A DNA stretch of 64,000 nt from Novakomyces olei (taxonomy: Eukaryota): assembly GCA_016906335.1 (NCBI GenBank), contig JADEYG010000003.1, positions 1,364,001 to 1,428,000 on the forward strand, given 5' to 3'. Each line of letters begins with the position of its first letter. Position 1 is the first letter of the stretch. A model generated the notes under the pieces. That model was not told where the DNA came from and did not search any database. It saw nothing but the letters and a program-made list of their open reading frames with translations. The position numbers and the translations under genes were made by a program. This document shows, piece after piece, positions 533 to 55,041 of the stretch.

Positions 533-850
533 TGTCATATCAATATGACATAATTCCGTTTTCATCGGAGATAATCCGTTCGATTGCGGATTATTTCCAA
601 TTCCGGAATTTTAGTTAGCCACTTTGTGGCTTAGACAGTCTTTTCCGTAGTTGTTTCTATTTTTAGTTATAGTTAGTTAGTTCCAGCAAGGATAAAAGGA
701 GGCCCGTTCGCACTTTTATCCGACGCTGATTATCGACCGTGTTGACCGTGTAAACCGTTTTAAGTACTATTACCTTCCATTTGGCTTCCCACCACAGTTG
801 CCGTGAAAGCAACACAGCCGTACCCAAACCAAACAAAGAAAAACACAACA
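533..850 (+). repeat. GyA1 5' LTR
   Basis: Direct repeat of 6499-6816 with one mismatch seen; TG...CA termini. Confidence 0.97.
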
Positions 851-888
851 GTATAATCAGCCCACGTTGTGGTGCCGAGCCGTTCGTC

Positions 889-1899
889 ATGGAAGGTGTC
901 GACATGAATCGTCTGAACCAATTTGTTGAGGAAACAACAGCGAAGTTACAGCTACTGGAGCATGAGAACATGATGCTGAAGGTCAAATTGGAAAACGATC
1001 AGGAGAGTCGACATGCGACGTTCAACCGGGAGCCCAAGTTAGCCCCGCCACCTTTGTTTTTTGGCGAGAGAGCTAAGGCTCGTGAATTTATCACCCAAGT
1101 GAAAATGATAACCGACGCACTACCCTCGAGATACGGATCGGACCGCCAGAAGGTCACGTTTGCAGCAACCTATTTGCGAGGAACCGCGTTCAGGTGGATT
1201 GAGCCTCACATCCTAGGGGAAAACGAAGGAATACTCAACGATTTTGAGACGTTTTGTGATTCATTCCTACAGATGTTTGGTGATCGAGATATTAGAAAGC
1301 AGGCGCAGAAGCAAATTCGCAATCTGAAGCAGTCTGGAGCTGTTGCTCAGTACGCAGCCGAGTTTGACAGACTCAGAGCGAACTTTAGCTGGAACGAAGA
1401 AGCGTTGATTTCGCAGTACTACGAGGGCCTTAGCGACAGGCTTAAGGACGAATTGGCAAGAACGACAGAGCCTAGTACCTTGCGAGAGATGATCGAGATG
1501 ACGATCAGTATTGATAATCGTCTATTTGAGAGACGTAAAGAGAGACAGAGAACAAGTTACGAACCGAGAACGTATTATGAGCCGAGATTTACGGGCAGAA
1601 GTAACCAGACGACTGCACCGATGGAAATTGATTTGGCGGTTGCCGGTGCCAGAGGAGCAGGCAGACCCGCAAGAGAGTACAAGACGAATGACAGAGAGCA
1701 CAAGACGAATTACAGAGACGCGAGAGACGCGAGAGAAAGAGAGAGAAGTCACGACAACAGAAACGTACAGTGTTATAATTGCCAGAAGAAAGGGCATATT
1801 GCAAAAGAGTGCAAAGAAAAGAGAATTCCGTTTGTAAGCCGTCAAGCTGCAATGACGACGAACGATTTGAGCGACGACTCGGGAAAAGATTTCGCCTAG
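889..1899 (+). CDS. gag: Gag (capsid plus CCHC zinc knuckle) of GyA1
   Basis: Retrotransposon gag motifs (FAATYLRGTAFRW, YYEGLSDRLKDEL, APMEID) and CYNCQKKGHIAKEC; first ATG after the PBS is at 889. Confidence 0.93.
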   Translation: MEGVDMNRLNQFVEETTAKLQLLEHENMMLKVKLENDQESRHATFNREPKLAPPPLFFGERAKAREFITQVKMITDALPSRYGSDRQKVTFAATYLRGTAFRWIEPHILGENEGILNDFETFCDSFLQMFGDRDIRKQAQKQIRNLKQSGAVAQYAAEFDRLRANFSWNEEALISQYYEGLSDRLKDELARTTEPSTLREMIEMTISIDNRLFERRKERQRTSYEPRTYYEPRFTGRSNQTTAPMEIDLAVAGARGAGRPAREYKTNDREHKTNYRDARDARERERSHDNRNVQCYNCQKKGHIAKECKEKRIPFVSRQAAMTTNDLSDDSGKDFA

Positions 1900-1921
1900 A
1901 GAAAGAAGTGGTTTCTCTAGG
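1881..1921 (+). promoter_or_regulatory. Putative -1 ribosomal frameshift signal (gag-pol) of GyA
   Basis: G GGA AAA heptamer (1881-1887) in the gag frame, 7-nt spacer, then a perfect 10-bp stem CCTAGAGAAA/TTTCTCTAGG; pol is in the -1 frame. Confidence 0.8.
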
Positions 1922-4900
1922 ACAAGCTGAATTAAAAGCCACTGAAAGACGACGAGATACTGGAGTGAGACATTTGGAGACGGACGTCCAAATAAATGGG
2001 CTTAGACGAAAAGCTTTAGTGGATTCAGGAGCGAACCTAAATTTCATACACCCGCGATTAATATTGAATTTGAATCTAAAGACAGAAAGACTTCAGAGAC
2101 CAATTGTGATACAGGTTGTCGATGGCCGAAGCCTGGCATCAGGACCCGTGGCGAGAACTACGAAGATTATGGACATGAAGATAGGAAATTGTGTTACACC
2201 TACGAGATTTTATGTGGCAGATATTGGCCAGAGAGACATCATTTTGGGTATTCAATGGTTGCAAGAGAACAATCCCATTATTGATTGGAAGAATCGTACA
2301 TTATCATTTGAAGTACAGAATACAGAGCAAGATTATGCAGACGCAACTTGCACGCAGACGAGCGGATTAAAGGCAAGTTTTGCGGATGAAACACAAGTGC
2401 CGCAAGAGAGCGGATTTTTTCCCGAAAAACCGGAAAGCGATAACGTTGGAAAAATCCCCCAAATTCCTACAGAATATGAAGACTATCGTGATGTATTCGA
2501 TGAGAGACGAGCAGACGTATTGCCACCGCATCGAAGCTATGATCATGAAATAATATTGGAAAAGGGATCGAAGGTACCTTTTGGACCTATCTACAACATA
2601 TCTGCAGACGAGCAGAGAGAGTTGCTCAAGTATATTGAGGAAAACTTGTATAAGAAATTCATCAGAAAATCGAAGTCACCAGCAGGAGCACCCATATTGT
2701 TTGTGAAAAAGAAGGACGGGAGCTTACGACTCTGCGTGGACTACAGAGCACTAAATGCGATTACAGTCAAGAATCGATATCCTATTCCGAGAATTGATGG
2801 ACTCATCGATAAGTTAAGTGGAAGTCGTATATTTACTAAGATCGATTTGAAAGGCGCTTACAATCTGATACGTATTCGAAATGGCGACGAGTGGAAAACC
2901 GCATTTCGTACAAGATACGGACATTTTGAATACAGAGTGATGCCTTTTGGACTCACTAATGCGCCAGCAACTTTCCAAAACCTTATGAATGACGTATTCC
3001 GAGATATCCTGGATAGATATGTCTTAGTCTATCTGGATGACATCCTCATTTACTCGAGAAATAAAGAGGAACATATACAGCATGCCAGAGAAGTGTTTAA
3101 GCGAGTACGAGCAAGACAGCTGTTCGCAAAGGCAAGCAAATGTGAATTTCACAAGACAAAAGTGGAATTTCTAGGATTTATTATATCGACAGAAGGAGTT
3201 TCGATGAGCTCGGACAAGACCAAGCCTATTAATGACTGGCCCACACCAAAGAACGTCAAGGACGTACAGTCGTTTCTTGGACTATGCAATTATTACAGAA
3301 GATTCATTCCTGGATTTTCAAAGATTGTGACACCAATAACAAGTCTATTAAAGAAGGATAATACATTTAGCTGGGGAGCAGACCAAGAGAAGGCTTTTGA
3401 ACAATTGAAAGACAGCTTTCGAAGAGACGTTACGTTAAAGCATTACGATCCAGAACTCGAGTGCATTGTCGAAACAGATGCCTCAGATTTCGCTATAGGA
3501 GCCGTACTGTTACAAGAACAAGGAGGCGAAAAGAGACCGATTGCTTTTATAAGCAGAAAGCTTGAACCAGCCGAGATCAATTATGATATACACGATAAAG
3601 AGTTACTTGCGATTGTCTATGCATTCGGAATATGGAGACACTATTTGCAAGGACATCCAAAGCCAATTATTGTATATACTGATCATCGGAACTTGCAGAC
3701 GTTTACTACGACAAAGAAACTATCGAGGAGACAAGCACGTTGGTCGGAACTATTAGGAGAATATGAATTTAAGATTCGATACAGAAAAGGATCAGGAAAC
3801 GCAGCAGCAGACGCGTTGAGCAGAAGAGTTGATTTTAATAATGTTGACTTGAAGGAATACTAAATTGATAAGCCGTTGATCGATCCAGCAAGATTTGATC
3901 TAAGTATGACAACAGTCGAACATATAGATACGGACGAGAAGCTGGAAATATTGCGAGCATGCCATGATCACCCATTAGCAGGACATTTTGGACAACATCG
4001 AACGTTAGAACTAGTACAGCGTTTTAAGAAGTGGAAAAATATGTCGTAGGATGTTAGGGATTACGTAGCATCATGTGCGACGTGCTGGAGAAGCAAGAAA
4101 TCGAGGAAGAAACCTGCAGGATTATTAAACCCGCTACAAGTACCGTCAAGACCATGGGAATCTGTTTCAATGGATTTTATCGTTAAACTTCCCGAATCCG
4201 AAGGTTTTGATTCAATACTAGTGGTTGTTGACAGATTTTCTAAAATGTGTCATTTAATCCCTTGCAAAGAATCATCCACAGCAACGGATGTAGCGAGACT
4301 ATACATTGACAAGGTATTTAAACACCACGGACTACCAAATGAAATCGTATCAGACAGAGATCCAAAGTTTTTGAGCAAATTTTGGCAAGGCATGTACCAG
4401 AACCTTGGAGTTAAGCTATTGCATTCGACGAGTCACCACCCACAAACAGATGGACAGACTGAGAGAACCAATCAAACACTCGAGCAATACTTAAGAGCCT
4501 ATGTCAATTACAACCAAAACAATTGGAGCAAGCTATTGTCTTTTGCGGAATTCGCAATGAACAATGCAACAAACAGCAGTACAAGACTATCACCGTTTTA
4601 CATTTGCAACGGTTATCATCCAAAGGGAATACAGATCACAACTTCCCAGAGTGACAATCCAGCAGCAAATCAAACTACACGAGACTGGAACGAATTATTT
4701 GAACGAGTCAAAAGCAACATTCAATCTGCAAATAAAGTATCAAAGCTACATTATGACAAAAAGAAAACAGCAGCAAATACATTTGTGCCTGGAGACAACG
4801 TGTGGATCCAGAGAAGACACATACACAGCGAGCGACCATCGGATAAACTAGATCATACAAGACTGGGACCTTTCAAAATTATTGAGGCTATAGGAAATAG

Positions 4901-5207
4901 CGCTTACAGGATTGAGCTTCCCCAACATATCAAAATACACAACGTATTTAATGAAACTTTACTGGAAAAATGTTTACCAGACCGATTTCAGAGAGACCCA
5001 ACAGATGTACACGTTCCCGATGTTCTAGTGGACACGACTGAATACGAAGTCGATTACATTTGCAATCATACAGGCAGAGGCCGAAACCGCAAATATTTAG
5101 TGCATTGGAAAGGTTATGGAGTACAAGACCGTACATGGGAACCTTTTGGAAACCTGACAAATGCAACAGAGGCAGTTAAAGCATACTGGAATAACCAAAA
5201 ACATTGA
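1881..5207 (+). pseudogene. pol: GyA1 pol (PR-RT-RNaseH-IN-chromodomain) with two in-frame stops
   Basis: LVDSGA, YLDD, TDASD, integrase core (SDRD, QTERTN) and chromodomain EYEVDYI...YLVHWKGY...TWEP. In-frame TAA at 3861-3863 and TAG at ~4047-4049. Confidence 0.92.
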
Positions 5208-5458
5208 ATCCGCAATATCAACACATAATCCGCTAAGATACGGATCAGATATATCTATATTATTGCTTTTATTGTTATTCTATGCTACGACTATTACTTA
5301 ATAAAATAATTAAGTATATACTATTATTATCATTATTATTTTTATGGAACGTCAAAGAATTATTACTTGTCGAAGTCAAGTATAACGAAGTCTATATATA
5401 TGTGGGCTACCCCCACCAAATCCGCAACTTAGACATCAAATCCGCAAATTTACGGACA

Positions 5459-6514
5459 ATGAACAATAACGTTCTTGAAGAGGGGAGGCAGCGCAAGCGA
5501 TACGCGCTGGACAGCGGTAAGTTCCAATGTGTTGTGTGCACTCGACAGTACACCCGAAAGCACGACCGCGACCGTCACATGGAGATGCACGACCCTGATC
5601 TGGTTGGCTGGGCCGAAGAGTGGTTTAAGGAGGAAGACCGACCGAACAAACAGTTGGCGAGAGACATTTTTACTCTGCTCGCATCGGTTGATTTCGAAAA
5701 GCTCAAGCCCCATAGCGAAAGGTTTGTTTTCGATTGCAAGCCAACATGGGCACATGTCTTCGAGGACCTTTTGGAGGATGAGACAGCTTTGTTTATGGAC
5801 ATACGGGTTCGCGTGCATGATGACGAAATACGAATCGCCCAGGTCCTCGCATCATTCGTCCAGCCGGGGACTACGAGATACGCAGCCTACAATTTGAGGC
5901 CGATCAGCGAATACGGTTTATCGTCAGTGGGCCTTCGCGCGCAAGGATTGTTGAAGGAAAGTTATTTGAATGAACTTGGATGGAACGGGACTGCCACACC
6001 GTCGGGCACAATCACGGACGTTCACGTGGATCCGGTTCTGTGCGAAACCGTCATTGTGGGAATTCTTGGGAGAAAGCTGGTCTTTACGTGGGCCAATTCA
6101 GAGGCCAATTTACAGAAGTTGGAGCCCTATCATCGCAGGCCAGGAGACTTTATATTACCTGAAGCTCTTCGCAGCCTCGAAGGGTTAAAGATTGGAGTAC
6201 TAGAGCCGGGAGTTATTTTTCGATTAAGGTCTGGGACACCACATGCGGTGATGTCTTTTGAGAAAGCAGTCTTGATGGGTTACTATATTGCTAGCGAAGA
6301 CCAGGCTTTATACCGAGTGGCAAAGTGGGAATCGTCGTGGGCTAGTACACAGTTCCCAACTATTCGAGACGAGGTAAAGGAAGATCACGAACGTTGCTTG
6401 ATGGCATATCGTGATTGGGCAGGAGAAGACAGCAGGAGACAAGGCTGGTACAAAAAGGCACAGGCGGCAGTGTCTACGTTTTTGGAAGAGGAGGATAGTG
6501 TCATATCAATATGA
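5459..6514 (+). CDS. ORF3: C2H2 zinc finger plus JmjC-like 2OG/Fe(II) dioxygenase (putative histone demethylase-like)
   Basis: RQRKR basic patch; FQCVVCTRQYTRKHDRDRHMEMH; GTITDVHVD (H 6023, D 6029) ... GRKLVFTW ... LEPG...GTPHAV (H 6242). Start put at ATG 5459 by alignment with the GyC and GyE homologs; the ORF track start at 5282 adds an AT-rich extension. Confidence 0.85.
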   Translation: MNNNVLEEGRQRKRYALDSGKFQCVVCTRQYTRKHDRDRHMEMHDPDLVGWAEEWFKEEDRPNKQLARDIFTLLASVDFEKLKPHSERFVFDCKPTWAHVFEDLLEDETALFMDIRVRVHDDEIRIAQVLASFVQPGTTRYAAYNLRPISEYGLSSVGLRAQGLLKESYLNELGWNGTATPSGTITDVHVDPVLCETVIVGILGRKLVFTWANSEANLQKLEPYHRRPGDFILPEALRSLEGLKIGVLEPGVIFRLRSGTPHAVMSFEKAVLMGYYIASEDQALYRVAKWESSWASTQFPTIRDEVKEDHERCLMAYRDWAGEDSRRQGWYKKAQAAVSTFLEEEDSVISI

Positions 6515-6816
6515 CATAATTCCGTTTTTATCGGAGATAATCCGTTCGATTGCGGATTATTTCCAATTCCGGAATTTTAGTTAGCCACTTTGTGGCTTAG
6601 ACAGTCTTTTCCGTAGTTGTTTCTATTTTTAGTTATAGTTAGTTAGTTCCAGCAAGGATAAAAGGAGGCCCGTTCGCACTTTTATCCGACGCTGATTATC
6701 GACCGTGTTGACCGTGTAAACCGTTTTAAGTACTATTACCTTCCATTTGGCTTCCCACCACAGTTGCCGTGAAAGCAACACAGCCGTACCCAAACCAAAC
6801 AAAGAAAAACACAACA
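6499..6816 (+). repeat. GyA1 3' LTR
   Basis: Direct repeat of 533-850, preceded by the PPT. Confidence 0.97.
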
Positions 6817-7791
6817 ATATGAGTCCAAAAATTAATGACAATTCTGAATTATCCGAATTGCAAACGGAGGAGCTTGGAACTAAATGGACCGACGATGGTA
6901 AAAGACGCTCAACCCGAATACGTAGTTTGCCAGGACCATACGATCATGCGCATATTAGTATTGACAGTATAATTGAGCCTACCAATACGAAACAAGCTAG
7001 AGAAAGCGTGCAAGCATCAGAATGGGAATTAGCGATGAAGACAGAATTGGACGCAATAAAAGAAAATGACGCTTGGGTACTAGTGAACGCGCCAGAGGGA
7101 GCTAATGTCATTGGAAATCGATGGGTCTTTAAAGCTAAAGCAAATGTTGATGGGGAAGTTGGACGTTACCGAGCACGATTGGTTGCAAAGGGATTTGGTC
7201 AGCGTGAGGGAGTAGATTATCAAGCGACATACGCCCCGACCATGTCCTTAGAATCATTTCGCACTTTACTGGCTTATGGAGCAATGCAAAAATGGAATAT
7301 TCATCAGATGGATGTTACAACTGCATTCTTAAACGGCGAATTAGAAGAATGCGTTTATATGAAACAACCAGAAGGATTCGACGACGGAACAGGAAAAGTA
7401 TGCAAATTGAAAAGATCGCTCTACGGTTTAAAACAGGCCCCTAGATGTTGGTACAAAAAGCTTTTCACAGTGTTAATGGAAATTGGATTTATGGAATCGA
7501 AGGTCGAAGACTGTATACTATACAGCTCCCAAGGTAATTTATTTTTGCTTATTTATGTTGATGACATTATTATTATGGGCGAGAATTTAAATGAAATGAA
7601 ACGAACAAAGGAAAATTACAAAGAGCATTTAAGGTCAAAGATTTGGGTGAGATTCATCAATTTCTTGGGATGGAATTTTGTTATGATCAGAAAATTGGAA
7701 ATTTGAAAATAAGTCAGAAGGTATAGGAATATGTCAAGCTTGGACGTCACAGAAAAAGAACAGGAAGGCTGGCTACAGAAAAGAGGAGGAA

Positions 7792-7961
7792 TGGCTGGAG
7801 TGGCTGGAGTGGCTGGAGTGGCTGGAGTGGCTGGAGTGGCTGGAGTGGCTGGAGTGGCTGGAGTGGCTGGAGTGGCTGGAGTGGCTGGAGTGGCTGGAGT
7901 GGCTGGAGTGGCTGGAGTGGCTGGAGTGGCTGGAGTGGCTGGAGTGGCTGGAGTGGCTGGA
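7792..7961 (+). repeat. 9-bp minisatellite (TGGCTGGAG)n inside the Copia-1 LTR, about 19 units
   Basis: Perfect tandem array; other Copia-1 LTRs carry 7, 7, 7 and 5 units, and LTR lengths differ by multiples of 9 (388/280/262 bp). Confidence 0.97.
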
Positions 7962-8134
7962 ACTGAGTACAAAGAGGCTTGCGCTACCAAAGTGTAACTC
8001 GGTGGCTGGAACCAAAGAAACTATATAGTACAGCGTCAGTAGACTTAGAAAAGTAGCTAAAAGGAGATACAACACTATTCTCTACAACAAGCCAAATTAA
8101 ATTTCTTCAGATTAAGAGTCTGAGTTCAGTCAAT

Positions 8135-27724: not shown

Positions 27725-29750
27725 GAGGGAGTATAGGAAAGTATATCAAGCTTGTGCAGCAGCTGATTACTTAGAAAAAAAAATGAAGTTTACCCTGGTA
27801 ATTGTGACTGTCATTGAGAAGACTATAAATAGATCTAGATAGAACTATGTTGGCCAACGAAATTGAATACAACACGTTTCAAATTAACACGTTCGAAATT
27901 ATAGATTCAACACTCTGTCTCCCATACAAACTTTTCCTTCTTCTTTAGCGTTCGTGTTATCGGCAACGCTATCTTTGCAAAATCTTTGATAAATCTCCTG
28001 TAGTAGTTGCAAAAACCAAGGAAGACTTGAACATCGTGAACAGATTTTGGTGGCTCCCATTGCAAAATAGGTTCCCTTTTATCTGCGCACATCGACACTC
28101 CATTCGTCGATAAATTGTAACCAAGAAATTCGACGCTTTCTCTATGAAATGCGCATTTCTTGTCCTTCGCATAAAGATCATTCTCTCTCAATCTTCTTAA
28201 TACTTCTTTCACATCGTTCACATGCGATTCTCTATCGCGTGAAAATACCAAAATATCGTCCAGGTAGATTAACACTTTGTAATCTAATAAATCTCGAAAC
28301 ACATCATTCATCAAGTTTTGGAACGTGGCGGGTGCATTGGTAAGACCAAAAGGCATGACCAAATATTCGAAGTGCCCGTACCTTGTTCGAAAGGCAGTCT
28401 TCCATTCATCCCCTTCTTTTATCCTGATAAGATTGTATGCTCCTCTGAGATCGATTTTTAACATAATCTTAACTCCAGTAAGTTTGTCAATAAGGTCATC
28501 GATACGTGGGATTGGGTACTTGTTCTTGATAGTAATCGAATTCAATCCACGATAATCGACACACAATCGATCCTCCATTTTTCTTTGGTACAAATAGAAC
28601 TGGCGCTCCTGCAGGCGACTTCGAACGACGTATAAATCCCTTAGCCAAGTTCTCTTCCAAATAATCCAATAAATACTTCTGTTCCTTTGGGTCGACACTG
28701 TAGACTGGCCCGAAAGGTATGACAGAATCCTTTGTTAGTTCGATCTCGTGATCGTAACTTCTGTGTGGAGGCAATGTTTCCACATTCTTTTCTTCAAACA
28801 CATCTTTGAAGTCAGTATACTCTGGTGGTATTGTATTTGTAACCATCTCTTCATCCGCGGTAATACTGCTCAACTGTCATGATCCCCGCCTCGCGTGAAC
28901 CACGACAGCGAACGACGCCTGAAGTCCTGTAGCGCCAAAGGCGATGACTTCAGGCTAGATAGATCTAAATAGCTCGCGCGAGGTAATGTTGGACATTACT
29001 CGCGCGAAGCGCGTAAGTGGCCTAGCTCGCGAGCAGGTTGGACCTGGCTCGCGCGAAGCAGGTCCACGTCCATGCCCGCGCGACGTAGGCACGTCGCGGC
29101 GCATGACAGTAGTAGTAGCGATCGCGCATCGCTACGAAGCTAGATAGATCGATCCATAGAGTTCATAGCTCGCCACCGCTTTCCCAATGCGGATGGTCTG
29201 GGACCATCGCATTGAGATCGTGGTGGGATGAGGCTTAGGCCGCGAAGTGGCTAAGCGAGCCGCTAAGCCTCATAGGATAGTCTACATAGTCGCCCATGGA
29301 GAGAACTCTCTCCACGGGCTTATAATCTCAAAGTTGCTACATAACCTTGTAGCAGGTAAGCTTTAGAGAAGCGCCGTCGCCTTTTCAAGGACAACGTCCT
29401 TTTCCTTTTCCTTAGTTCTTGCGCCGGGCGCAAGTCTACGTTCCCGTTTCTCGGTACTCGCTTCGCGCGGTACCCGATTGAACTTCCTTTGTCGAGCGGT
29501 CTCGCAAAGGACAGTCCGTGTTCGCCTGTAGCGACACGCGAGTTTACACCGCGGTGCTCCCCTCTAAGGGCCACCTTACACTATTATAAGCCCGTGAGCT
29601 CGTCTAAGCTACAGATTTACACGGCGTTGAAAGGTGTCACGCACGGAGGCGTACACAAATTTCGATTTACAAGTTTTATTTCGCACTAAGTTGTTGCGAC
29701 GAAGGGTGCTTTGCTACGGTTTAGCAGCACAAACGAATTATTGAATTACG

Positions 29751-30698
29751 ATGAGTCAAGAGGACTTGAACGCGTTTCTGCAGACGCTGCAGGCGCAGAT
29801 CGCGTCGCTCCAAGAGGAGCGCGTTAAGGACAAATCGGTTATTGAAGGCCTTCGCCAGGAAATGGGATCCCGGGGATCTCGACGATCAGGAGTCAGCGAA
29901 GGGCCAAGCATTTCGAAGCCGGATACATTCAGAGGTGATCGCAGATCGGTGGATACTTTCCTTGCACAGGTTCGCTTATACGTGAGACTCAAGCCACATG
30001 AGTTTCGCAACGACGAAGCGAAGGTCCTGTTTGCGGTATCTTATCTGCGCGGTGCCGCTTTTGCGTGGTTTGAACCCCACTTGCGCGACCACGATGAAAG
30101 CCTAATTACCAGTGACTTTGCCCTGTTTTGCGACGAGCTCTCCACGACATTTGGGAGCGTCGACCGCATTAGTCAGGCTGAGCGGGAGCTAGCATTGCTC
30201 AAACAGCGAGGATCTGTTGCTGAGTATACTTCGCGTTTTCAGCAGATCACTTCGCACTTGGATTTTAGCGATCACAGTTTACGCTACGAATATTATCAAG
30301 GATTGAAAGATCGAATTAAGGACGAATTATCTCGGTTGGAAAAATCGCGTACATTGTCAGACTTAATTGAGAAGTCTGTACGCGTGGACGAAAGGTTGTC
30401 GGATCGTTACTACGAAAGCGCTAGCCGTACGAACGCCAAGGGCGCTTCAGGCTATAGGGGCGCGACGATCGCGAACAAAGGATACACTCCCATGGAGGTA
30501 GATGCTACCAGTTACGAAAAGAAGAGCATTACCAGCGACGAACGCCAGCGTCGAAAGAAAGAGAACAGATGTTTTACGTGCGGACGCGAAGGTCATCGCG
30601 CACGTGATTGCAAACAGAAGCAACGCAATTATGAGCAACGCATCTCGGTGGTTATGGACAGTATCACGGAACCGGGAAAAGCGAGAGCCCAGGTCTAA
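29751..30698 (+). CDS. gag: GyB1 Gag
   Basis: FAVSYLRGAAFAW, TPMEVD, CFTCGREGHRARDC. Confidence 0.94.
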   Translation: MSQEDLNAFLQTLQAQIASLQEERVKDKSVIEGLRQEMGSRGSRRSGVSEGPSISKPDTFRGDRRSVDTFLAQVRLYVRLKPHEFRNDEAKVLFAVSYLRGAAFAWFEPHLRDHDESLITSDFALFCDELSTTFGSVDRISQAERELALLKQRGSVAEYTSRFQQITSHLDFSDHSLRYEYYQGLKDRIKDELSRLEKSRTLSDLIEKSVRVDERLSDRYYESASRTNAKGASGYRGATIANKGYTPMEVDATSYEKKSITSDERQRRKKENRCFTCGREGHRARDCKQKQRNYEQRISVVMDSITEPGKARAQV

Positions 30699-33600
30699 AA
30701 GAAAGGCCTGATCTGGGCGTTAATGACACGAGGCTTTCGGAGGTGATGTCAGTGGTACCCGAACCTGACAGAGGAATACATCTCACAGTTACTGCAAATT
30801 TGAGAACTAGCAAGGGCCAGCTGGACGCGAAGGCGCTGATCGACTCAGGCGCGACGTCGAATTTTATCAGCCAGAGCCTTGCTACGAGAAGCATAATCGA
30901 TATAACGAAGAAGGCGAAGATTGAGCCACTACGAGTTGTGGATGGAAGAGCGATTCGCACCGGAGGTGTTCGCTTCCAGACTGAAAACATGGAGGTCACC
31001 ATAGGCGAACATCGCGAGACTATGATGTTTAACGTGATACCGCTCTCTGGACACGACGTTATTTTAGGAAAGCCATGGCTCGACAAACATGAGCCAAGGA
31101 TTGCATGGAGACGTGCAAAAGTCGAATTCGAGTCTTCCTATTGCTTAGCAAACTGCCTCAAGAAGCCCGAGGCACAAGACGAACCATCGCAAATCAGTGC
31201 GACGGAATTTGCTAAGCTATCGCGAGGCAACGACTCGGGATTGCTGTGCGTATACGCGACCGACGCTAAAAGCGAGGACAAAAACGTCGCTATACCTCCC
31301 GAGTATGCAGACTTTCGCGATCTTTTTGAGAAAAGAAATGCAGACATTCTACCACAGCATCAGGCGTGGGATCACGCAATACCGTTGACAGAAGGCGCGA
31401 AGCCGCCGTTCGGGCCTATATATCCTCTGGCCGAACGCGAGCTACAAACACTACGCGACTACATTAAAGACAATCTAGCGAAGGGATTCATTAGGCCGTC
31501 TTCATCGCCCGCGGGGGCTCCAATTCTTTTTGTGAAAAAGAAGGACGGTTCGCTGAGACTGTGCGTAGATTATCGCGGGCTAAACGCGGTAACTGTCAAA
31601 AATCGCTATGCGCTGCCGCTCATATCGGAGCTATTGGATCGCATTCGTCAGTCGACGATATTTACGCGATTAGATCTCCGTGGCGCGTATAATCTTGTCC
31701 GTATACGCGAAGGCGACGAGTGGAAAACCGCCTTCCGTACGCGTTATGGACATTACGAATATCAGGTTATGCCTTTCGGGCTCACGAACGCCCCGGCATC
31801 TTTCCAAGCTCTTGCGAACGACACATTACGCGATTGTCTGGATCGCTTTGCTGTTGTATACTTGGACGACATCTTGATCTATTCGGACACCGAGGAGGAG
31901 CATGTGACGCATGTTCGCGAAGTACTGAAACGACTTCGCAAAGCAAACTTATTTGTGAAACTAGAGAAATGCGAGTTCCACACAGACACGACAGAGTTCC
32001 TAGGCTTTGTTGTCTCTACGAAAGGAGTGTCTATGGAGAAAGCGAAAGTTGATTCTATTGAGACATGGCCTGAACCCAAGAACGCGAAAGACGTTATGTC
32101 GTTCTTAGGCCTATCAAATTACTATCGCAGATTTATTGCAAACTACAGCAAAATTACCATCCCTCTCACCCGCTTACTGAAGAAGGATGCGCAGTTTAAT
32201 TTCTCCAAGGAGTGCATTGACTCTTTCCAAACTCTGAAGAACGCTTTTCTGGGTGCGCCGATCCTTGCGCATTTCGACCCGCAGAAGCCAAGTTATTTGG
32301 AAACCGACGCATCGGACTTCGCGATCGGTGGGATTCTCTCGCAGAAAGACAACAGCGACGAAATGAGACCCATCGCGTTCTACTCGCGAAAAATGACTAG
32401 CGCGGAAGTAAACTATGATATCTACGACAAAGAGCTGTTAGCTATTGTCGCATGTCTTCGCGAATGGCGAGTTTACCTGGAGAGTCCGTTACATCGCACT
32501 ACAATTTATACGGATCACCGCAATCTCATGTACTTTCTTACAGCAAGAGTACTTAGCCGTAGACAGATGCGATGGTCGCAATTGATCGCTTCCTATGATT
32601 TCGTTATTGAATACCGTGCTGGAAAGCTAAATCACAAAGCGGATGCCTTGTCTAGGCGAAGCGATTATGTCGGCGATAAGGAACAGGAGAAACCAGAGCG
32701 AACTATGGCACTATTGGACAGATCGCACTTCCTGTTCGCGACCGTAGAAGATACAGGCATTGATGATCAGATTAAACAATGTTACGGCAAAGACAAGACT
32801 TGCAAGGTTGTCATGGAGGACCTCGGCAAGCAGCCAGTGTCGGAACATCTGCGAAACTACAGTATAAACGAAAAGGGTCTTCTAACGTTTTCGGGTTTGC
32901 TATACATCCCAAACGACAATCGTTTGCGATTAGCTATACTACAGACATGCCATGATTCGCATGTCGCGGGTCACCCTGGCCAGGCCAAAACGTTGGACTT
33001 AGTCATGCGAAACTACTATTGGCCACGCATGCGAAAAGAGATATTTAGCTACGTCGAGTCGTGCGATACTTGTGCGCGAAACAAGCCTTCGCGACATGCA
33101 CCGTATGGACTACTACACCCACTGAGAGTACCAGCGAGACCCTGGGAAAGTATCTCAATGGACTTCATTGTGAAATTACCGGAGTCGCGCGATGCGATTA
33201 CACAAAAAACCTACGACTCCATATGGGTAATCACCTGTCGATTTACGAAAATCGGAATATTTATACCAATACGCGAATCTATTAAGGCTACTGAGCTAGC
33301 TTTGATTTACGCCCATCGCGTATTTGCCAACTATGGCCTACCAGACGAAATAGTCTCTGACAGGGGTTCGGTATTTGTATCGCAGTTTACACGACACTTG
33401 CTTTCGCAATGCGATATACAGCAGAAGTTGTCTACCGCGTACCACCCACAGAGCGACGGCCAAACAGAGAGGCTTAACCAGATCTTAGAGCAATATCTGA
33501 GGATCTACAGCAACTATCAGCAAAGCAATTGGGTCAATTTGTTACCTTTTGCTCAATTCGCGTACAACAATTCAGAGCAGTCGTCTACAAAGACAACACC

Positions 33601-34225
33601 GTTTTACGCTTTTTACGGCTACAACCCGAAATGTCGCTTTACGATTTCATCTTCGCGACAATGCCCATCCGCGGATGAACGTATCGAATACCTACGGAAT
33701 CTACATCGCTTATTGAAAGTCGAAATCGAAAAGTCTCTCAGCGACCAGGCGCGCTTTGCAAATGAGCATCGCGTCGACAAAAGTTTTGCTATTGGCGATC
33801 AAGTCTGGCTAGTGCGAAAAAATATTAGCACTACGCGGCCATGCGATAAGCTGGATGCCAAGAAGCTGGGACCGTTTAGGATTATCGCACGCGTTGGTTT
33901 GCGTGCATATCGCTTGGAACTATCGAAGGCAATGCGTATACATCCTGTCTTCCACGCTTCATTGCTAGAGCGACATAACGCAGTGTCGCAGATCGCGCGA
34001 GAACAGATCGCGCCACCACCTCCAGTTATATTGGATGCTAACCCGGAATGGGAAGTCGAGCAAGTTCTAGACTCGCGCATCCGACGCAAGCAACTTCAAT
34101 ATTATGTGCATTGGAAAGGCTACGACGCCTCCGACCGCACGTGGGAGCCTGCGAAACATTTACACAACTGCATGGATTTGGTAAACGAATTCCACCGTGC
34201 ACACCCGAACAAACCTGGTTCTTAA
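30674..34225 (+). CDS. pol: GyB1 Pol (PR-RT-RNaseH-IN-chromodomain), -1 frame to gag
   Basis: Uninterrupted ORF of more than 1160 aa: LIDSGA, YLDD, TDASD, HHCC, SDRG, QTERLN, WEVEQV...YYVHWKGY...TWEP. Slippery G GGA AAA at 30674-30680 followed by stem GCCCAGGTC/GATCTGGGC. Confidence 0.94.
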   Translation, partial: GKSESPGLKERPDLGVNDTRLSEVMSVVPEPDRGIHLTVTANLRTSKGQLDAKALIDSGATSNFISQSLATRSIIDITKKAKIEPLRVVDGRAIRTGGVRFQTENMEVTIGEHRETMMFNVIPLSGHDVILGKPWLDKHEPRIAWRRAKVEFESSYCLANCLKKPEAQDEPSQISATEFAKLSRGNDSGLLCVYATDAKSEDKNVAIPPEYADFRDLFEKRNADILPQHQAWDHAIPLTEGAKPPFGPIYPLAERELQTLRDYIKDNLAKGFIRPSSSPAGAPILFVKKKDGSLRLCVDYRGLNAVTVKNRYALPLISELLDRIRQSTIFTRLDLRGAYNLVRIREGDEWKTAFRTRYGHYEYQVMPFGLTNAPASFQALANDTLRDCLDRFAVVYLDDILIYSDTEEEHVTHVREVLKRLRKANLFVKLEKCEFHTDTTEFLGFVVSTKGVSMEKAKVDSIETWPEPKNAKDVMSFLGLSNYYRRFIANYSKITIPLTRLLKKDAQFNFSKECIDSFQTLKNAFLGAPILAHFDPQKPSYLETDASDFAIGGILSQKDNSDEMRPIAFYSRKMTSAEVNYDIYDKELLAIVACLREWRVYLESPLHRTTIYTDHRNLMYFLTARVLSRRQMRWSQLIASYDFVIEYRAGKLNHKADALSRRSDYVGDKEQEKPERTMALLDRSHFLFATVEDTGIDDQIKQCYGKDKTCKVVMEDLGKQPVSEHLRNYSINEKGLLTFSGLLYIPNDNRLRLAILQTCHDSHVAGHPGQAKTLDLVMRNYYWPRMRKEIFSYVESCDTCARNKPSRHAPYGLLHPLRVPARPWESISMDFIVKLPESRDAITQKTYDSIWVITCRFTKIGIFIPIRESIKATELALIYAHRVFANYGLPDEIVSDRGSVFVSQFTRHLLSQCDIQQKLSTAYHPQSDGQTERLNQILEQYLRIYSNYQQSNWVNLLPFAQFAYNNSEQSSTKTTPFYAFYGYNPKCRFTISSSRQCPSADERIEYLRNLHRLLKVEIEKSLSDQARFANEHRVDKSFAIGDQVWLVRKNISTTRPCDKLDAKKLGPFRIIARVGLRAYRLELSKAMRIHPVFHASLLERHNAVSQIAREQIAPPPPVILDANPEWEVEQVLDSRIRRKQLQYYVHWKGYDASDRTWEPAKHLHNCMDLVNEFHRAHPNKPGS

Positions 34226-34452
34226 ATGGGAATGCTAAGCGAGCTCCCTATTCGGGCGACGACCTTCAACTTTCGTCACCCACGCGAAACTAAGACTCAA
34301 CTCTTAAAGTGATTTATTGATTTATTGATTATACCGCGATTATTATTGTTTAAATTATTACGAGAAAATTATACAAAAACATATTCAATTACTTGTCGAA
34401 CAAATAATATGGGACAACGCAAGGAGGAATGGCTGTTGAGTCACGCACACAA

Positions 34453-34953
34453 TTACGGACGAGCGGCACGGAGCGAAAGAATCTCGCGCTCCAACGCACG
34501 GTTGCGGCGCTCGAGGCGAGCGATAGTCGCATCGCGCTGGGCCAGCGCACTCGAAACCGAACCGACGATCGAATTTGTTGACGGAGGACCGTCATCGGCA
34601 ATTACATGCACCTCGAATGGTGCCTGACGTCTTTCCTCCTGCGCTCGCTGTCGCGCGCGACGTCTTTCGCGGCGACGCTGCAGCTCCTCGCGCTCTCTCA
34701 CACGCTGTTCTTCACGCGCGGCAACAAGGCGCTCGTTCTCCTCATTGTCATGAAGAAAACGGCCTCCTTCGCAACGGGTGCGACGTGCCGCGCAGACCAT
34801 ACAGCGACGCACAAACGGTGCAGTGCCGAGAACGAAGCGGCACGGCAAAGAGTTTGCCACGCAATACTCGCAGGGCACGATAGCATCTCTGACATGAGCA
34901 AGCGACATGTTGTTGTTGATCCGGAACGCAGAGCGAAAATTCTTGTTTTGCAT
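34453..34953 (-). CDS. GyB1 antisense ORF: Zn(II)2Cys6 (GAL4-type) cluster plus Arg/Glu-rich coiled coil
   Basis: CEYC-x6-C-x12-CMVC-x6-C, then EENERL...RRRERRRARQR and a C-terminal heptad-like ALAQRDATIARLERRNRALERE; open in both GyB copies. Confidence 0.75.
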   Translation of the reverse strand: MQNKNFRSAFRINNNMSLAHVRDAIVPCEYCVANSLPCRFVLGTAPFVRRCMVCAARRTRCEGGRFLHDNEENERLVAAREEQRVREREELQRRRERRRARQRAQEERRQAPFEVHVIADDGPPSTNSIVGSVSSALAQRDATIARLERRNRALEREILSLRAARP

Positions 34954-35986
34954 CCGCAAATTACTTTATATTACTTAGATAGTTTTATTGCCGAAAGCGC
35001 ACTTATATAGCAGTCTAGTAGCTAACGTGGTTTTCATAGGCGCGGAGACCTCGCCCTAGAAAGGGGGATAGTGTCATGATCCCCGCCTCGCGTGAACCAC
35101 GACAGCGAACGACGCCTGAAGTCCTGTAGCGCCAAAGGCGATGACTTCAGGCTAGATAGATCTAAATAGCTCGCGCGAGGTAATGTTGGACATTACTCGC
35201 GCGAAGCGCGTAAGTGGCCTAGCTCGCGAGCAGGTTGGACCTGGCTCGCGCGAAGCAGGTCCACGTCCATGCCCGCGCGACGTAGGCACGTCGCGGCGCA
35301 TGACAGTAGTAGTAGCGATCGCGCATCGCTACGAAGCTAGATAGATCGATCCATAGAGTTCATAGCTCGCCACCGCTTTCCCAATGCGGATGGTCTGGGA
35401 CCATCGCATTGAGATCGTGGTGGGATGAGGCTTAGGCCGCGAAGTGGCTAAGCGAGCCGCTAAGCCTCATAGGATAGTCTACATAGTCGCCCATGGAGAG
35501 AACTCTCTCCACGGGCTTATAATCTCAAAGTTGCTACATAACCTTGTAGCAGGTAAGCTTTAGAGAAGCGCCGTCGCCTTTTCAAGGACAACGTCCTTTT
35601 CCTTTTCCTTAGTTCTTGCGCCGGGCGCAAGTCTACGTTCCCGTTTCTCGGTACTCGCTTCGCGCGGTACCCGATTGAACTTCCTTTGTCGAGCGGTCTC
35701 GCAAAGGACAGTCCGTGTTCGCCTGTAGCGACACGCGAGTTTACACCGCGGTGCTCCCCTCTAAGGGCCACCTTACATCAACTGTATATCCGAAAATTCG
35801 TCTTTCACCGTAGGAGTACTTGCATTGCGAGGCTTTATAGTTCCATTAATCCAATCAATATCTGGATTGTGCTTCTGGAACCATGGTAACCCAAGGATGG
35901 CGTCGTTCTTGCCAATATTAGTGACAAGGAATGATTCTTCAGATACGAAACCTTGTACATCGACATGTAGATCCTTCGTCTTGATG

Positions 35987-38209: not shown

Positions 38210-38710
38210 ATGCAAAACAAGAATTTTCGCTCTGCGTTCCGGATCAACAACAACATGTCGCTTGTTCATGTCAGAGATGCTATCGTGCCCTGCGAGTATT
38301 GCGTGGCAAACTCTTTGCCGTGCCGCTTCGTTCTCGGCACTGCACCGTTTGTGCGTCGCTGTATGGTCTGCGCGGCACGTCGCACCCGTTGCGAAGGAGG
38401 CCGTTTTCTTCATGACAATGAGGAGAACGAGCGCCTTGTTGCCGCGCGTGAAGAACAGCGTGTGAGAGAGCGCGAGGAGCTGCAGCGTCGCCGCGAAAGA
38501 CGTCGCGCGCGACAGCGAGCGCAGGAGGAAAGACGTCAGGCACCATTCGAGGTGCATGTAATTGCCGATGACGGTCCTCCGTCAACAAATTCGATCGTCG
38601 GTTCGGTTTCGAGTGCGCTGGCCCAGCGCGATGCGACTATCGCTCGCCTCGAGCGCCGCAACCGTGCGTTGGAGCGCGAGATTCTTTCGCTCCGTGCCGC
38701 TCGTCCGTAA
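38210..38710 (+). CDS. GyB2 antisense Zn(II)2Cys6/coiled-coil ORF
   Basis: Same protein as 34453-34953 with one substitution; TATATAAG at ~38154-38161 upstream; alternative start CAACAACAAC-ATG at 38255. Confidence 0.75.
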   Translation: MQNKNFRSAFRINNNMSLVHVRDAIVPCEYCVANSLPCRFVLGTAPFVRRCMVCAARRTRCEGGRFLHDNEENERLVAAREEQRVREREELQRRRERRRARQRAQEERRQAPFEVHVIADDGPPSTNSIVGSVSSALAQRDATIARLERRNRALEREILSLRAARP

Positions 38711-45121: not shown

Positions 45122-45462
45122 TGTTATGGGTCACAGTTCTGTGCTGAGTAAGTCTGGATAGGTTTGGCCAGTAACACGATGGCCGTGGCAGGGAGTCAGA
45201 GTAGGAGAAAGCAAATGGACTTAAACGCAACTAAACTCGTAACTGTAAAACTTCAGTAACTTCAAACTTCAAACTTCAATAACCGTCAAGTCTCAATAGG
45301 CGGCGTTGAAGGGCCTATTTATAGACTTGACTACTAACTAAACTAACAAGTACTATAGAACACTATAGAACTTTCTACGAACCGTGAGCTCAAGTAAACG
45401 GAAATACCGCAACTGAACTCTATTAGCGTTGGAAAACGCTAATTGATGTCATGCCTATGACA

Positions 45463-46494
45463 TTACTCCCCCTCTTCAAGGAGAGCCAATCCTGCTTTAG
45501 CGGCCAGTAAATGCTCTTCACTGCCGTTACCCCGTAACACCCATCTGGTGATTTCCTTCAAGCTGTTCTGATGATCTTCCGCGACTTGGAATCTCATGGC
45601 TAAGCTAGACTGTTTCGCCCAATTCGCTTCCCAGACGGTAAGCCTGCTCATGACCTTTGGAGTCTCCACCAGCGTATAACCCGTAATTGCGGCATCTGTC
45701 AAGGATATAACAGCATGTGGTGTTCCTCCAGGTAGCACAAAAACAGTTCCTGGCTTGACCTCGCCAATTCTGAGGCCTTTCAAACTCTTCAGGGCACTCG
45801 TTAACACAAAGTCACCAGGCTTTTGATGGTACTCCTCCGATGCTTTCAGCTCTTCGGGACCGTTATTCCACGCAAGTAGCAATTTCCATCCTAGCACTCC
45901 AACGATGACCTGTCGCGTGCACACAGAATCAATATGCACGTCCGTAATAGTTCCTGCGGGAGTAACTGTTCCCAACCAAGATCGTCCAACGATTCTCTTT
46001 CGTAGCTGACTCAATTTGTGCGGGCCACAAGACTTCAAGCCACTTGCACTTTCATGAGCCACATTGTAAACAGCGTATTTTGTTTTCAATTTGCCCATCC
46101 ACGATGCGACAACCTGAGATATGCGTACCTCGTCGTCATGAACACGAACTCTTGTATCCATAAAGTGTGCCGTTTTCGTCTCCATTACATCGTCAATCAC
46201 ATTTGGCCAATCGGGAGTTGTTGAGAAAGACTCCGAAATATCATCCTCAATTGGTTGCAAAATGTCGTATTCGTTGCGCGATAAATAAGCCAAGGTCTGG
46301 CGCGCAACGATGTTCTCCGTATTAGCGTTTTTCCACGCTTCCGCCCATTCTCGTAGCTTCTCCGGGTGCGAGGCTATATGTCGCTGTAGATCAAAGCTTC
46401 TCGTAAAGTGTCGCATGCAAACGTCGCACTCAAACTCTCCGCGATCTCGTTCGCCGCGCTTGCGCTTTTCCCCTCCTTCAACAGTTGCGGTCAT
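45463..46494 (-). CDS. GyC ORF3: C2H2 zinc finger plus JmjC-like dioxygenase
   Basis: EKRKR; FECDVCMRHFTRSFDLQRHIASH; GTITDVHID...GWKLLLAW...VKPG...GTPHAV; clear homolog of 5459-6514. The stop codon abuts the 3' LTR. Confidence 0.85.
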   Translation of the reverse strand: MTATVEGGEKRKRGERDRGEFECDVCMRHFTRSFDLQRHIASHPEKLREWAEAWKNANTENIVARQTLAYLSRNEYDILQPIEDDISESFSTTPDWPNVIDDVMETKTAHFMDTRVRVHDDEVRISQVVASWMGKLKTKYAVYNVAHESASGLKSCGPHKLSQLRKRIVGRSWLGTVTPAGTITDVHIDSVCTRQVIVGVLGWKLLLAWNNGPEELKASEEYHQKPGDFVLTSALKSLKGLRIGEVKPGTVFVLPGGTPHAVISLTDAAITGYTLVETPKVMSRLTVWEANWAKQSSLAMRFQVAEDHQNSLKEITRWVLRGNGSEEHLLAAKAGLALLEEGE

Positions 46495-49307: not shown

Positions 49308-49607
49308 TGTTAAGTGAGGATTACTCACTGTTGTAACAATATAAATTAGACCTAGCTAAGAGATCTATCTTTCAGACTATGGGAAGTTGGGTCCTTTTAT
49401 AGACTTTTTGTGAAGCAGATAGGACGGAGATAGGAAGGAGATAGGAAGGAAATAGGAAGGAAATGATGAGTAATGATGATGAATCATTGATGAGTAATGA
49501 TGACTCATTGATGAGTAATGATGATTAATCATTGATGAGTAATGATGACTCATTGATGAGTAATCAGTCTTGATTAGATTTGATTAGATCAATCTTGATT
49601 CCTAACA
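49308..49607. repeat. Solo LTR (300 bp) in GyC RT with internal tandem repeats
   Basis: TGTTA...TAACA; TSD CAAAT at 49303-49307 and 49608-49612; repeated GATGAGTAATGATGA units at ~49464-49564. Confidence 0.88.
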
Positions 49608-50339
49608 CAAATAAAATTGGTGCGCCTGCGGGTGACTTAGATTTGCGTATGAAACCCTTTTCCATGTTCTCTTCAATATACTTCAATAATTCTCGCTGTT
49701 CATCGGCTGATATATTGTAAATTGGTCCAAATGGTGCTTTGGATCCTTTTTCCAAAATAATCTCATGATCATAAGCTCTGTGTGGCGGTAATTGGTCCGC
49801 TCCTTCTTCGTCAAATACGTCTTTGAATTCTTTGTATTCTCTAGGAAGTCTCGTTTCCTTAGCGGTAATTGCGTTACTCTGCGCAAATTGCAAATAGGCG
49901 TAAATAGGCTTGTCGTCAATTCTGTCTTCTTCAAATTTCAACTCTTTGGTCACCCAATTGATATTCGGGTTGTTCTCTCGTAACCATTGTATTCCCAAAA
50001 TGACATCGCGTCTTCCACTGTCTGCAACATAAAACTTCGTTGGTGTAATTTTGTTTGCAATTCTGATGTCCAGTCTTTTTGTTGTACATACAACTGGTCC
50101 TGATGATTGTTGTGTTTTTCTTTGTTTGGTTTGGGTACGGCTGTGTTGCTTTCACGGCAACTGTGGTGGGAAGCCAAATGGAAGGTAATAGTACTTAAAA
50201 CGGTTTACACGGTCAACACGGTCGATAATCAGCGTCGGATAAAAGTGCGAACGGGCCTCCTTTTATCCTTGCTGGAACTAACTAACTATAACTAAAAATA
50301 GAAACAACTACGGAAAAGACTGTCTAAGCCACAAAGTGG

Positions 50340-51464: not shown

Positions 51465-51715
51465 TGTCCGTAAATTTGCGGATTTGATGTCTAAGTTGCG
51501 GATTTGGTGGGGGTAGCCCACATATATATAGACTTCGTTATACTTGACTTCGACAAGTAATAATTCTTTGACGTTCCATAAAAATAATAATGATAATAAT
51601 AGTATATACTTAATTATTTTATTAAGTAATAGTCGTAGCATAGAATAACAATAAAAGCAATAATATAGATATATCTGATCCGTATCTTAGCGGATTATGT
51701 GTTGATATTGCGGAT

Positions 51716-54700: not shown

Positions 54701-55041
54701 ATCTGCCACATAAAATCTCGTAGGTGTAACACAATTTCCTATCTTCATGTCCATAATCTTCGTAGTTCTCGCCACGGGTCCTGATGCCAGGCTTCGGCCA
54801 TCGACAACCTGTATCACAATTGGTCTCTGAAGTCTTTCTGTCTTTAGATTCAAATTCAATATTAATCGCGGGTGTATGAAATTTAGGTTCGCTCCTGAAT
54901 CCACTAAAGCTTTTCGTCTAAGCCCATTTATTTGGACGTCCGTCTCCAATGTCTCACTCCAGTATCTCGTCGTCTTTCAGTGGCTTTTAATTCAGCTTGT
55001 CCTAGAGAAACCACTTCTTTCTCTAGGCGAAATCTTTTCCC
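51716..55041 (-). pseudogene. pol: GyA2 pol
   Basis: Same two in-frame stops as GyA1 (near 53060 and 52875) plus a 1-bp deletion near 54949. Confidence 0.9.

Follow-up and report, generated by a model that had tools for sequence, protein, structure and literature searches.

Why would a long terminal repeat (LTR) retrotransposon carry, behind its pol gene, a third gene that resembles that of a histone demethylase? The question is raised by a 64,000-nucleotide (nt) stretch of the Novakomyces olei assembly GCA_016906335.1 (contig JADEYG010000003.1, positions 1,364,001 to 1,428,000, forward strand; hereafter the window, with positions counted from its first letter), in which a retrotransposon that we call element A contains such an open reading frame (ORF), ORF3. 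Copy 1 of element A is complete, spans 6284 bp (533-6816, forward strand), and is bounded by the target site duplication (TSD) ATATG at 528-532 and 6817-6821. Its LTRs (533-850 and 6499-6816, forward strand) are 318 bp each, begin with TG and end with CA, and show a single mismatch, C at 563 in the 5' LTR and T at 6529 in the 3' LTR. The gag gene (889-1899, forward strand; Pfam Ty3_capsid, Retrotrans_gag, and zf-CCHC) is overlapped in a different frame by pol (1779-5207, forward strand; stop codon at 5205-5207), which encodes protease, reverse transcriptase (RT), RNase H, and integrase with a chromodomain. Pfam places RVT_1 and RT_RNaseH in one of the pol ORFs of element A and rve, SH3_Tf2-1, and Chromo in the next. 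A preliminary description of this DNA, made from the letters alone, had named an integrase chromodomain, and Pfam locates one at the integrase C-terminus, at approximately 5043-5192 (Chromo, E 4.6e-11). By its LTRs and TSD, its gene order, and its integrase chromodomain, element A is a Ty3/gypsy chromovirus.

ORF3 extends from the ATG at 5459 to the stop codon at 6512-6514 on the forward strand and encodes 351 residues. The preliminary description had placed a sense ORF of about 350 residues after the pol stop, inside the TSD-bounded element, and was exact in this, coordinates included. The basic patch, the single C2H2 finger, and the T-D-V-H-V-D..K..H-A-V motif that it listed could all be located at residue level. 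The basic patch is R10-R14, and the finger is C24-H44 (approximately nt 5522-5590), which Pfam scores below its cut-off (zf-C2H2 and zf-C2H2_4, E 0.05-0.1). The JmjC domain covers approximately residues 62-350 and contains T186-D-V-H189-V-D191...K206...H262-A-V, with T186, H189, and D191 at nt 6014-6031, K206 at nt 6074, and H262 at nt 6242. The 3' end of the gene is interlocked with the element: the polypurine tract (PPT) GGAAGAGGAGGATAG (6484-6498, forward strand), which abuts the 3' LTR, lies within the ORF3 coding sequence (..EEED..), and the stop codon falls 16 nt inside the 3' LTR, in the first 16 nt of U3. A longer version starting at the ATG at 5282, which would add 59 AT-rich residues, was rejected, the extension not being conserved in the other families described below; in two of these, B and D, ORF3 begins at the site equivalent to 5459.

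The identity of the encoded protein emerged from its wider family. A profile of the ORF3 products of elements A and B was searched with HMMER against 1.84 billion representative proteins and matched 293 at E ≤ 1e-3, 30 at E ≤ 1e-10, and 0 at E ≤ 1e-30, the best at 9.8e-26. Many of the 150 matches listed are multi-finger proteins aligned through the finger only. Alignment A2 combines A, B, and the 42 proteins matched in one stretch only, within the C-terminal domain (n = 44). Every sequence in it has H189 and G153, and conservation reaches 90% or more at G183, D191, K206, W211, H262, W290, and W320. Searched against the PDB, the A2 profile matched 18 distinct sequences at E ≤ 1, of which 14 (E 4.3e-13 to 2.1e-5) are all ceKDM7A, KDM2A, KDM7A (JHDM1D), PHF8, or PHF2; helical proteins of no relation make up the remaining 4 (E 0.18-0.72). 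The family motifs TdiHiD, GeKLW, and tiHAV align with TDFHVD, GEKIF, and WIHAV of ceKDM7A. Residues H189, D191, and H262 stand in the iron-triad columns of ceKDM7A and KDM2A, while T186 aligns with the T of TDFH and K206 with the K of GEK/GGK in the same two proteins, columns that we take to be the 2-oxoglutarate ligands in enzymes of the KDM2/7 type. The top cluster in a protein-language-model search is named 'JmjC domain-containing protein' (0.96), and clusters combining JmjC and zf-C2H2 appeared at 0.89 and 0.87, to be read as leads only.

The predicted structure points in the same direction. An AlphaFold2 model computed with the A2 alignment reached a predicted local distance difference test score (pLDDT) of 91.7 and a predicted template modelling score of 0.89, and the two-sequence alignment gave a pLDDT of 40.5. 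A check by AlphaFold and Foldseek had been proposed in the preliminary description; the model has the double-stranded beta-helix fold, with Foldseek matches down to E ~1e-11. Foldseek ranks ceKDM7A, KDM7A, KDM2A, PHF2, and PHF8 first (E 2e-11 to 5e-9). With VIA-align, the top 23 of 999 chains are KDM7, KDM2A, PHF8, or PHF2 (Z 16.5-18.7, root-mean-square deviation 3.5-3.9, 246-280 residues), and these alignments span model residues 62-350, C-terminal helical domain included. JMJD5 comes next (Z 15.2-15.7, ending at residue 278), together with KDM6-type chains (Z 14.7-15.1). It is thus well supported, by the family profile and the predicted model, that ORF3 encodes a C2H2 finger and a KDM2/KDM7/PHF8-like JmjC domain in which the Fe(II) triad and the Thr/Lys positions are kept. 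The assignment of KDM2/KDM7/PHF8/PHF2 as the closest subfamily is likewise supported by profile and structure. The KDM2/KDM7-type signature with HxD...H and Thr/Lys, first read from the bare sequence, is therefore borne out by the A2 profile, the model, and VIA-align.

Is ORF3 peculiar to one copy? tBLASTn and the family hidden Markov model (HMM) found it 4 times in the window, in both copies of element A, in element B, and in element D. Copy 2 of element A (50108-56389, reverse strand; TSD ATCAT) is 99.94% identical to copy 1, has its ORF3 at 50340-51464 (reverse strand), and is nested in element B. Element B represents a second chromovirus family (45122-58032, reverse strand; TSD ATGGA), with LTRs of 341 bp at 57692-58032 and 45122-45462 that differ by 2 mismatches. 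Its ORF3 (45463-46494, reverse strand) is intact and encodes 343 residues; the TAA stop adjoins the 3' LTR, and the PPT GAAGAGGGGGAG is again inside the coding sequence. Element D, of a third family, has a single gag-pol ORF of 1460 residues (58556-62938, forward strand) ending in a chromodomain (Chromo, E 9.4e-12). The ORF3 of element D (63467-64000, forward strand; family profile E 8e-12) can be followed for 178 residues up to the window end and encodes a basic patch, a C2H2 finger of the H-x4-H type, and the JmjC domain from its N-terminal side as far as ..TPAGTFTN. ORF3 lies inside TSD-bounded elements in both A copies and in B, the bounds of element D being undefined at the window end. 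All three versions open with Met, a basic patch, and one C2H2 finger, and by Pfam an integrase chromodomain is present in all three families. With homologues at the same position in a further copy and in two other families, ORF3 is not a chance ORF.

Amino acid identities between the families are 53% (A-B), 42% (A-D), and 42% (B-D) for gag, 65%, 55%, and 54% for pol, and 42%, 23%, and 24% for ORF3, the ORF3 values for D covering the N-terminal half only. The three genes rank alike, which fits inheritance of ORF3 with the element since before the family split, and the simplest reading of these sequences is that ORF3 was already present in the common ancestor of families A, B, and D. Comparison of ORF3 between A and B over 341 codons gave a proportion of nonsynonymous differences (pN) of 0.414 and of synonymous differences (pS) of 0.806; synonymous sites are saturated, so that dN/dS cannot be quantified. 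Over 30-residue windows, conservation peaks around the catalytic motifs. The codon comparison indicates that ORF3 is under amino-acid constraint. No JmjC ORF was detected by the family HMM in a fourth chromovirus family of the window (28875-35777, forward strand; second copy 37384 to ~44200, reverse strand), which has the chromodomain, indicating that ORF3 marks a clade and not chromoviruses in general.

Outside the window, the named relatives of ORF3 come from Tilletia horrida, T. walkeri, T. indica, and Crepidotus variabilis, several of them on contigs of 2.5-7 kb, and are annotated as 'hypothetical proteins'; ten further relatives are metagenome proteins. Among 10 longer or top-ranking homologues, Pfam found no RT or integrase domain, and JmjC_2 in 1. 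A word-indexed search, which is weak evidence, returned no longer protein matching the A2 alignment and no gene model fusing pol to JmjC, and a word-indexed protein search with ORF3 gave nothing at near length. No ORF3 relative appeared in two metagenome scans and two viral-contig scans. A search with the element D polyprotein retrieved generic chromovirus polyproteins with up to 59% identity.

What could such a protein do for the element? KDM2/7-group JmjC enzymes demethylate H3K36me2, H3K9me2, H3K27me2, or H4K20me1. By analogy, we favor a full counter-silencing mechanism, to which we give a probability of about 0.5. The chromodomain integrase would land the element in transposon-rich chromatin methylated at histone H3 lysine 9 (H3K9me). 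The ORF3 mRNA would probably be subgenomic and 3'-coterminal, starting in the AT-rich spacer behind pol and ending in the 3' LTR. Its product would enter the nucleus through the basic patch and, as an active Fe(II)/2-oxoglutarate oxygenase, would clear nucleosomes on copies of its own family of repressive lysine methylation, be it H3K9me, H3K27me, or H3K36me in class. Guidance to these copies may come from the finger and the basic region, or the protein may act generally in heterochromatin. Demethylation would then offset the silencing met after heterochromatic insertion, and, with ORF3 acting in trans, pol-defective copies would gain too. Every well-defined insertion in the window has another retrotransposon as its target: for A copy 1 this is a copia RT gene, for A copy 2 element B. 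In the accessible part of one source, the chromodomain of MAGGY is described as targeting H3K9me regions (10.1101/2021.11.30.470311).

How chromoviruses are transcribed after landing in heterochromatin is an open problem, and an element-encoded JmjC enzyme is a testable answer. More tentatively, and with some doubt, we suggest that a chromovirus lineage has encoded its own finger-guided histone demethylase of the KDM2/7 type since before its families diverged (pol ~54% identical). If true, one retrotransposon would combine a reader of H3K9 methylation (the chromodomain, for landing) with an eraser (ORF3, for re-awakening). With ORF3, a histone demethylase would then for the first time be assigned to a retrotransposon, and an enzymatic anti-silencing factor to a retroelement. 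A length of 351 residues, a confident model, and three diverged natural variants make biochemical and reporter tests of the protein straightforward.

Several observations weigh against the counter-silencing mechanism. Pfam gives no match of ORF3 to a JmjC or cupin family (PF02373, PF08007, PF13621) at E ≤ 1, and the check for JmjC, Cupin_8, and zf-C2H2 suggested in the preliminary description therefore failed except for the sub-threshold finger. Across the 44 members of A2, Pfam detects JmjC_2 in 2 and JmjC in 1 at E ≤ 0.01, so that ORF3 would define a JmjC family largely missed by Pfam (3/44 members detected). Searched alone with phmmer against PDB sequences, ORF3 reaches a bacterial cupin (E 0.016) and zinc fingers, and the two-sequence profile of A and B reaches a bacterial cupin only (E 0.04); it is thus through the broader family and the predicted model that ORF3 is linked to the KDM proteins. 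With solved KDMs it shares 9-14% identity, too little for the substrate to be inferred. The Tyr column of ceKDM7A and KDM2A (VYYH, VWYH) is occupied by I199 in the ORF3 of A and by I in that of B, and this Tyr is presumably a 2-oxoglutarate contact in KDM7/PHF8. With one C2H2 finger only, the case for sequence-specific DNA binding is weak. In A copy 2, a 1-bp deletion at the equivalent of 6452 alters the final ~20 residues of ORF3, and the frame runs on into the LTR. A DNA run under another organism label, which carries the whole of element A including the same nested junction, has ORF3 variants of which 3 are synonymous and 1, in a minor contig, is a nonsense change. Three RNA runs with the same species label contributed 0 reads to element A, which is no real test of expression. 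No RNA run was listed as containing the sequence, and most other runs of that label share almost none of its sampled words, which we do not read as a distribution among strains. Lastly, as far as the accessible parts of the sources go, Epe1, a JmjC protein of S. pombe that counteracts H3K9me heterochromatin (PMC6576747, PMC7192584), is reported to do so in part by a non-enzymatic function (PMC7192584).

The alternative that survives best, which we nevertheless consider unlikely, is that ORF3 is an active JmjC oxygenase serving replication, perhaps by hydroxylating or demethylating a nucleic acid or a non-histone protein of host or element, such as Gag, integrase, or a factor of translation or restriction; chromatin silencing would then not be what it targets. 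The preliminary description, too, had allowed for a substrate of this kind. The JmjC superfamily does include protein hydroxylases, but the 14 significant PDB profile matches are all KDM2/7/PHF lysine demethylases and none is a hydroxylase. JMJD5 stands close behind in the structural ranking (Z 15.2-15.7 versus 16.5-18.7); its alignment, however, extends only to residue 278, whereas that of the KDMs covers the helical domain (62-350). The low identity to the KDMs leaves room for another substrate, and the PHD, CXXC, and F-box/LRR modules of KDM2/7 proteins were not found in ORF3 by Pfam, the single weak zf-C2H2 apart, leaving it without their histone readers. The basic patch and the zinc finger, on the other hand, suggest a nuclear protein associated with nucleic acid.

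It is improbable, in our view, that ORF3 opposes silencing or modulates chromatin without catalysis, its JmjC fold serving as a scaffold for HP1-like proteins or acetyltransferase complexes. The replacement of the presumed 2-oxoglutarate-contacting Tyr by I199 would fit a scaffold, but none of the 44 relatives lacks H189, each of D191, K206, and H262 is shared by at least 90% of them, and all are kept in A and B despite synonymous saturation. A functional active site would be expected to be conserved in this way. The precedent for a scaffold is Epe1, whose non-enzymatic function is noted above and which, in the accessible part of a further source, recruits SAGA (PMC6317313).

Slightly less probable still is a role at integration, in which ORF3 would act with the chromodomain integrase as a factor that tethers or remodels chromatin or DNA, for instance by preparing or marking nucleosomes at the target, and shape target choice. 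Its co-occurrence with that integrase in all three families is offset by the fourth family, where the chromodomain is found without a JmjC ORF. The insertions into other retrotransposons and the N-terminal zinc finger and basic patch would suit this role too, but ORF3 is a separate cistron with no tie to pol processing. Least probable is that ORF3 is a passenger, a transduced host JmjC gene of little or no benefit or in decay: the defective pol of both A copies and B, the ORF3 frameshift in A copy 2, the nonsense codon in the minor variant, and the 'hypothetical proteins' of Tilletia and Crepidotus could be read in this way, but it is the reading least compatible with retention in three families, given that the start, the finger, the catalytic residues, and the PPT-adjacent position are kept across families whose pol is 54-65% identical, that pN is 0.41 against a saturated pS, that ORF3 is integrated with the PPT and the U3 boundary, and that in element B it is intact with pol broken in several places.

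Mobile elements encoding epigenetic modifiers are already known. KDM7, KDM2, PHF8, and PHF2 resemble ORF3 as its best profile and structure matches, with T..HxD..K..HAV aligned, whereas ORF3 has 351 residues, an N-terminal C2H2 finger, and no PHD, CXXC, F-box, or LRR, and is encoded by a retrotransposon. Epe1 is a functional model, likened to ORF3 by function, with no Epe1 chain among the PDB matches; unlike ORF3, it is a host gene product recruited via Swi6/HP1, and its catalytic role is disputed. According to the accessible part of a 2025 survey, fungal DNA transposons (Kyakuja and other lineages) carry TET/JBP dioxygenases thought to be anti-silencing, and the survey itself points out that it met none in a retrotransposon (PMC12730594). 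As described in that part, these are fungal mobile elements with an Fe(II)/2-oxoglutarate dioxygenase of their own, as the ORF3 elements would be; they differ in the dioxygenase family, in acting on 5-methylcytosine in DNA, and in the class of element.

Retrotransposons have captured other host tools. The accessible parts of two reports describe DNA methyltransferase (DNMT) genes in dinoflagellate and charophyte retrotransposons (PMC5890265) and methyl-CpG-binding domain (MBD) genes in arthropod Copia elements (PMC6673714). Like the ORF3 elements, these carry a host-derived epigenetic gene; as so described, they provide writers and readers of DNA methylation, whereas the separate third ORF of the present elements would encode an eraser acting on histone methylation. 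VANC of Arabidopsis VANDAL elements, in the portions of two papers that we could access, binds noncoding parts of its own family's copies and relieves their silencing (PMC5735166, PMC10398659). By analogy, the same logic may apply to ORF3, element A having a repeated 8-mer in its noncoding parts. On that partial account, VANC differs in not being an oxygenase and in belonging to a DNA transposon, and DNA binding by ORF3 is only putative. Giant viruses endogenized in Amoebidium possess KDM4-like JmjC genes, to judge from the accessible part of their description (PMC11244446); they share with ORF3 the setting of a genomic parasite and a stand-alone domain without host readers, and differ in the subfamily (KDM4-like) and in being giant DNA viruses, not LTR retrotransposons. 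Transposon fusions with chromatin domains, among them PHD, Chromo, SNF2_N, and SET, are listed in the accessible part of Grau-Bove et al. (10.1101/2021.11.30.470311). The preliminary description knew of no characterized LTR retrotransposon with such a gene, and the literature searched agrees: among the papers listed, none reports a JmjC gene in an LTR retrotransposon, Repbase and subscription journals lying outside the scope of the search. If the counter-silencing mechanism is correct, the set of captured epigenetic tools (DNMT, MBD, SET, TET/JBP, VANC) would extend to erasers of histone methylation and, for such erasers, to retrotransposons.

The state of the elements bears on how they move. 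Both A copies have in-frame pol stops, TAA at 3861-3863 and TAG at 4047-4049, between RNase H and integrase; the copies differ at only 4 positions, and copy 2 also has a 1-bp deletion at the equivalent of 1973. In element B, gag and ORF3 are intact and pol is split over several frames. We estimate the chance of ORF3 staying intact in B at ~0.1, which with so few lesions is not statistically telling. Thus, the A and B copies are without an intact pol, and the gag-pol of element D is one intact ORF. Copies that are mostly non-autonomous yet recently inserted fit mobilization in trans, and the pol stops shared by A copies with TSDs of their own suggest mobilization in trans or stop-codon readthrough.

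Further details of these copies were noted. In DNA run X3, contig pieces end at 3860 and resume at 4048, flush with the pol stops. De Bruijn unitigs end in this way at polymorphic sites, so that intact-pol copies of element A may exist. The difference at LTR position 31 (C in the 5' LTR, T in the 3' LTR) is common to both A copies (563/6529 in copy 1; 56072-56389 versus 50108-50425 in copy 2). Independent retrotransposition should yield identical LTR pairs, so a shared difference is unexpected; it could come from gene conversion between the copies or from an assembly or polishing effect, and it makes LTR identity weaker as an estimate of age. The RT region of element B is broken after ..APILFV by ~250 nt out of frame (49310-49568, reverse strand), perhaps a minor insertion or the result of a rearrangement.

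How might ORF3 be expressed? Stop codons separate it from pol, making it a separate cistron whose frame is that of pol in D and a different one in A and B. In A, B, and D, no GTRNGT donor was found in the LTR, leader, or gag start, and no CTRAY..YAG acceptor beside the ORF3 start, with one match within the pol end of A; both are weak evidence. A spliced, env-like mRNA for ORF3 was set aside on this absence of a splice consensus, itself weak evidence. The AT-rich spacer of 251 nt between pol and ORF3 (5208-5458, forward strand), which contains AATCCGCA 3 times and a TATA-like run at 5394-5402, is a candidate internal promoter.

Across the window, the 8-mer AATCCGCA has 11 sites where 2.4 would be expected, and 0 of 100 shuffles reached 11; it was chosen after being seen, so that this statistic is only indicative. 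Ten of the 11 sites are in the A copies, within or abutting noncoding parts, with 3 in the spacer and 1 in each LTR per copy. In copy 1 they start at 585, 5207, 5419, 5439, and 6551, that at 5207 overlapping the last base of the pol stop. Families B and D have weaker spacer and LTR repeats of their own. The 8-mer is a candidate for a cis element shared by the LTR and an internal ORF3 promoter, or for the site of the ORF3 finger. Its LTR occurrence creates a CCG-N8-CGG everted repeat of the kind that fungal Zn2Cys6 factors typically recognize.

The surroundings are of the same kind. The window consists essentially of nested LTR retrotransposons, and host genes were not recognized in it. Beside the three JmjC-bearing families, it holds Ty1/copia pieces at ~6.8-28 kb (RVT_2, rve, SH3_retrovirus) and the two copies of the fourth chromovirus, whose LTRs are 706 bp long. 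Several LTR pairs are identical, and the nesting is clean. The JmjC-less family has ~850 nt between pol and the 3' LTR, with an antisense ORF of 166 residues (34453-34953, reverse strand; 38210-38707, forward strand). In its product, the cysteine pattern CX2CX6C...CX2CX6C, which recalls Zn2Cys6 DNA-binding domains, precedes a charged stretch resembling a coiled coil; Pfam returned no match at E ≤ 0.1. Conservation of this ORF says little at the 99.4% identity of the two copies. Downstream of a copia RT fragment, a short ORF contains a perfect 9-bp tandem array of GGAGTGGCT, with ~20 units at 7788-7970, which encodes (AGV)n.

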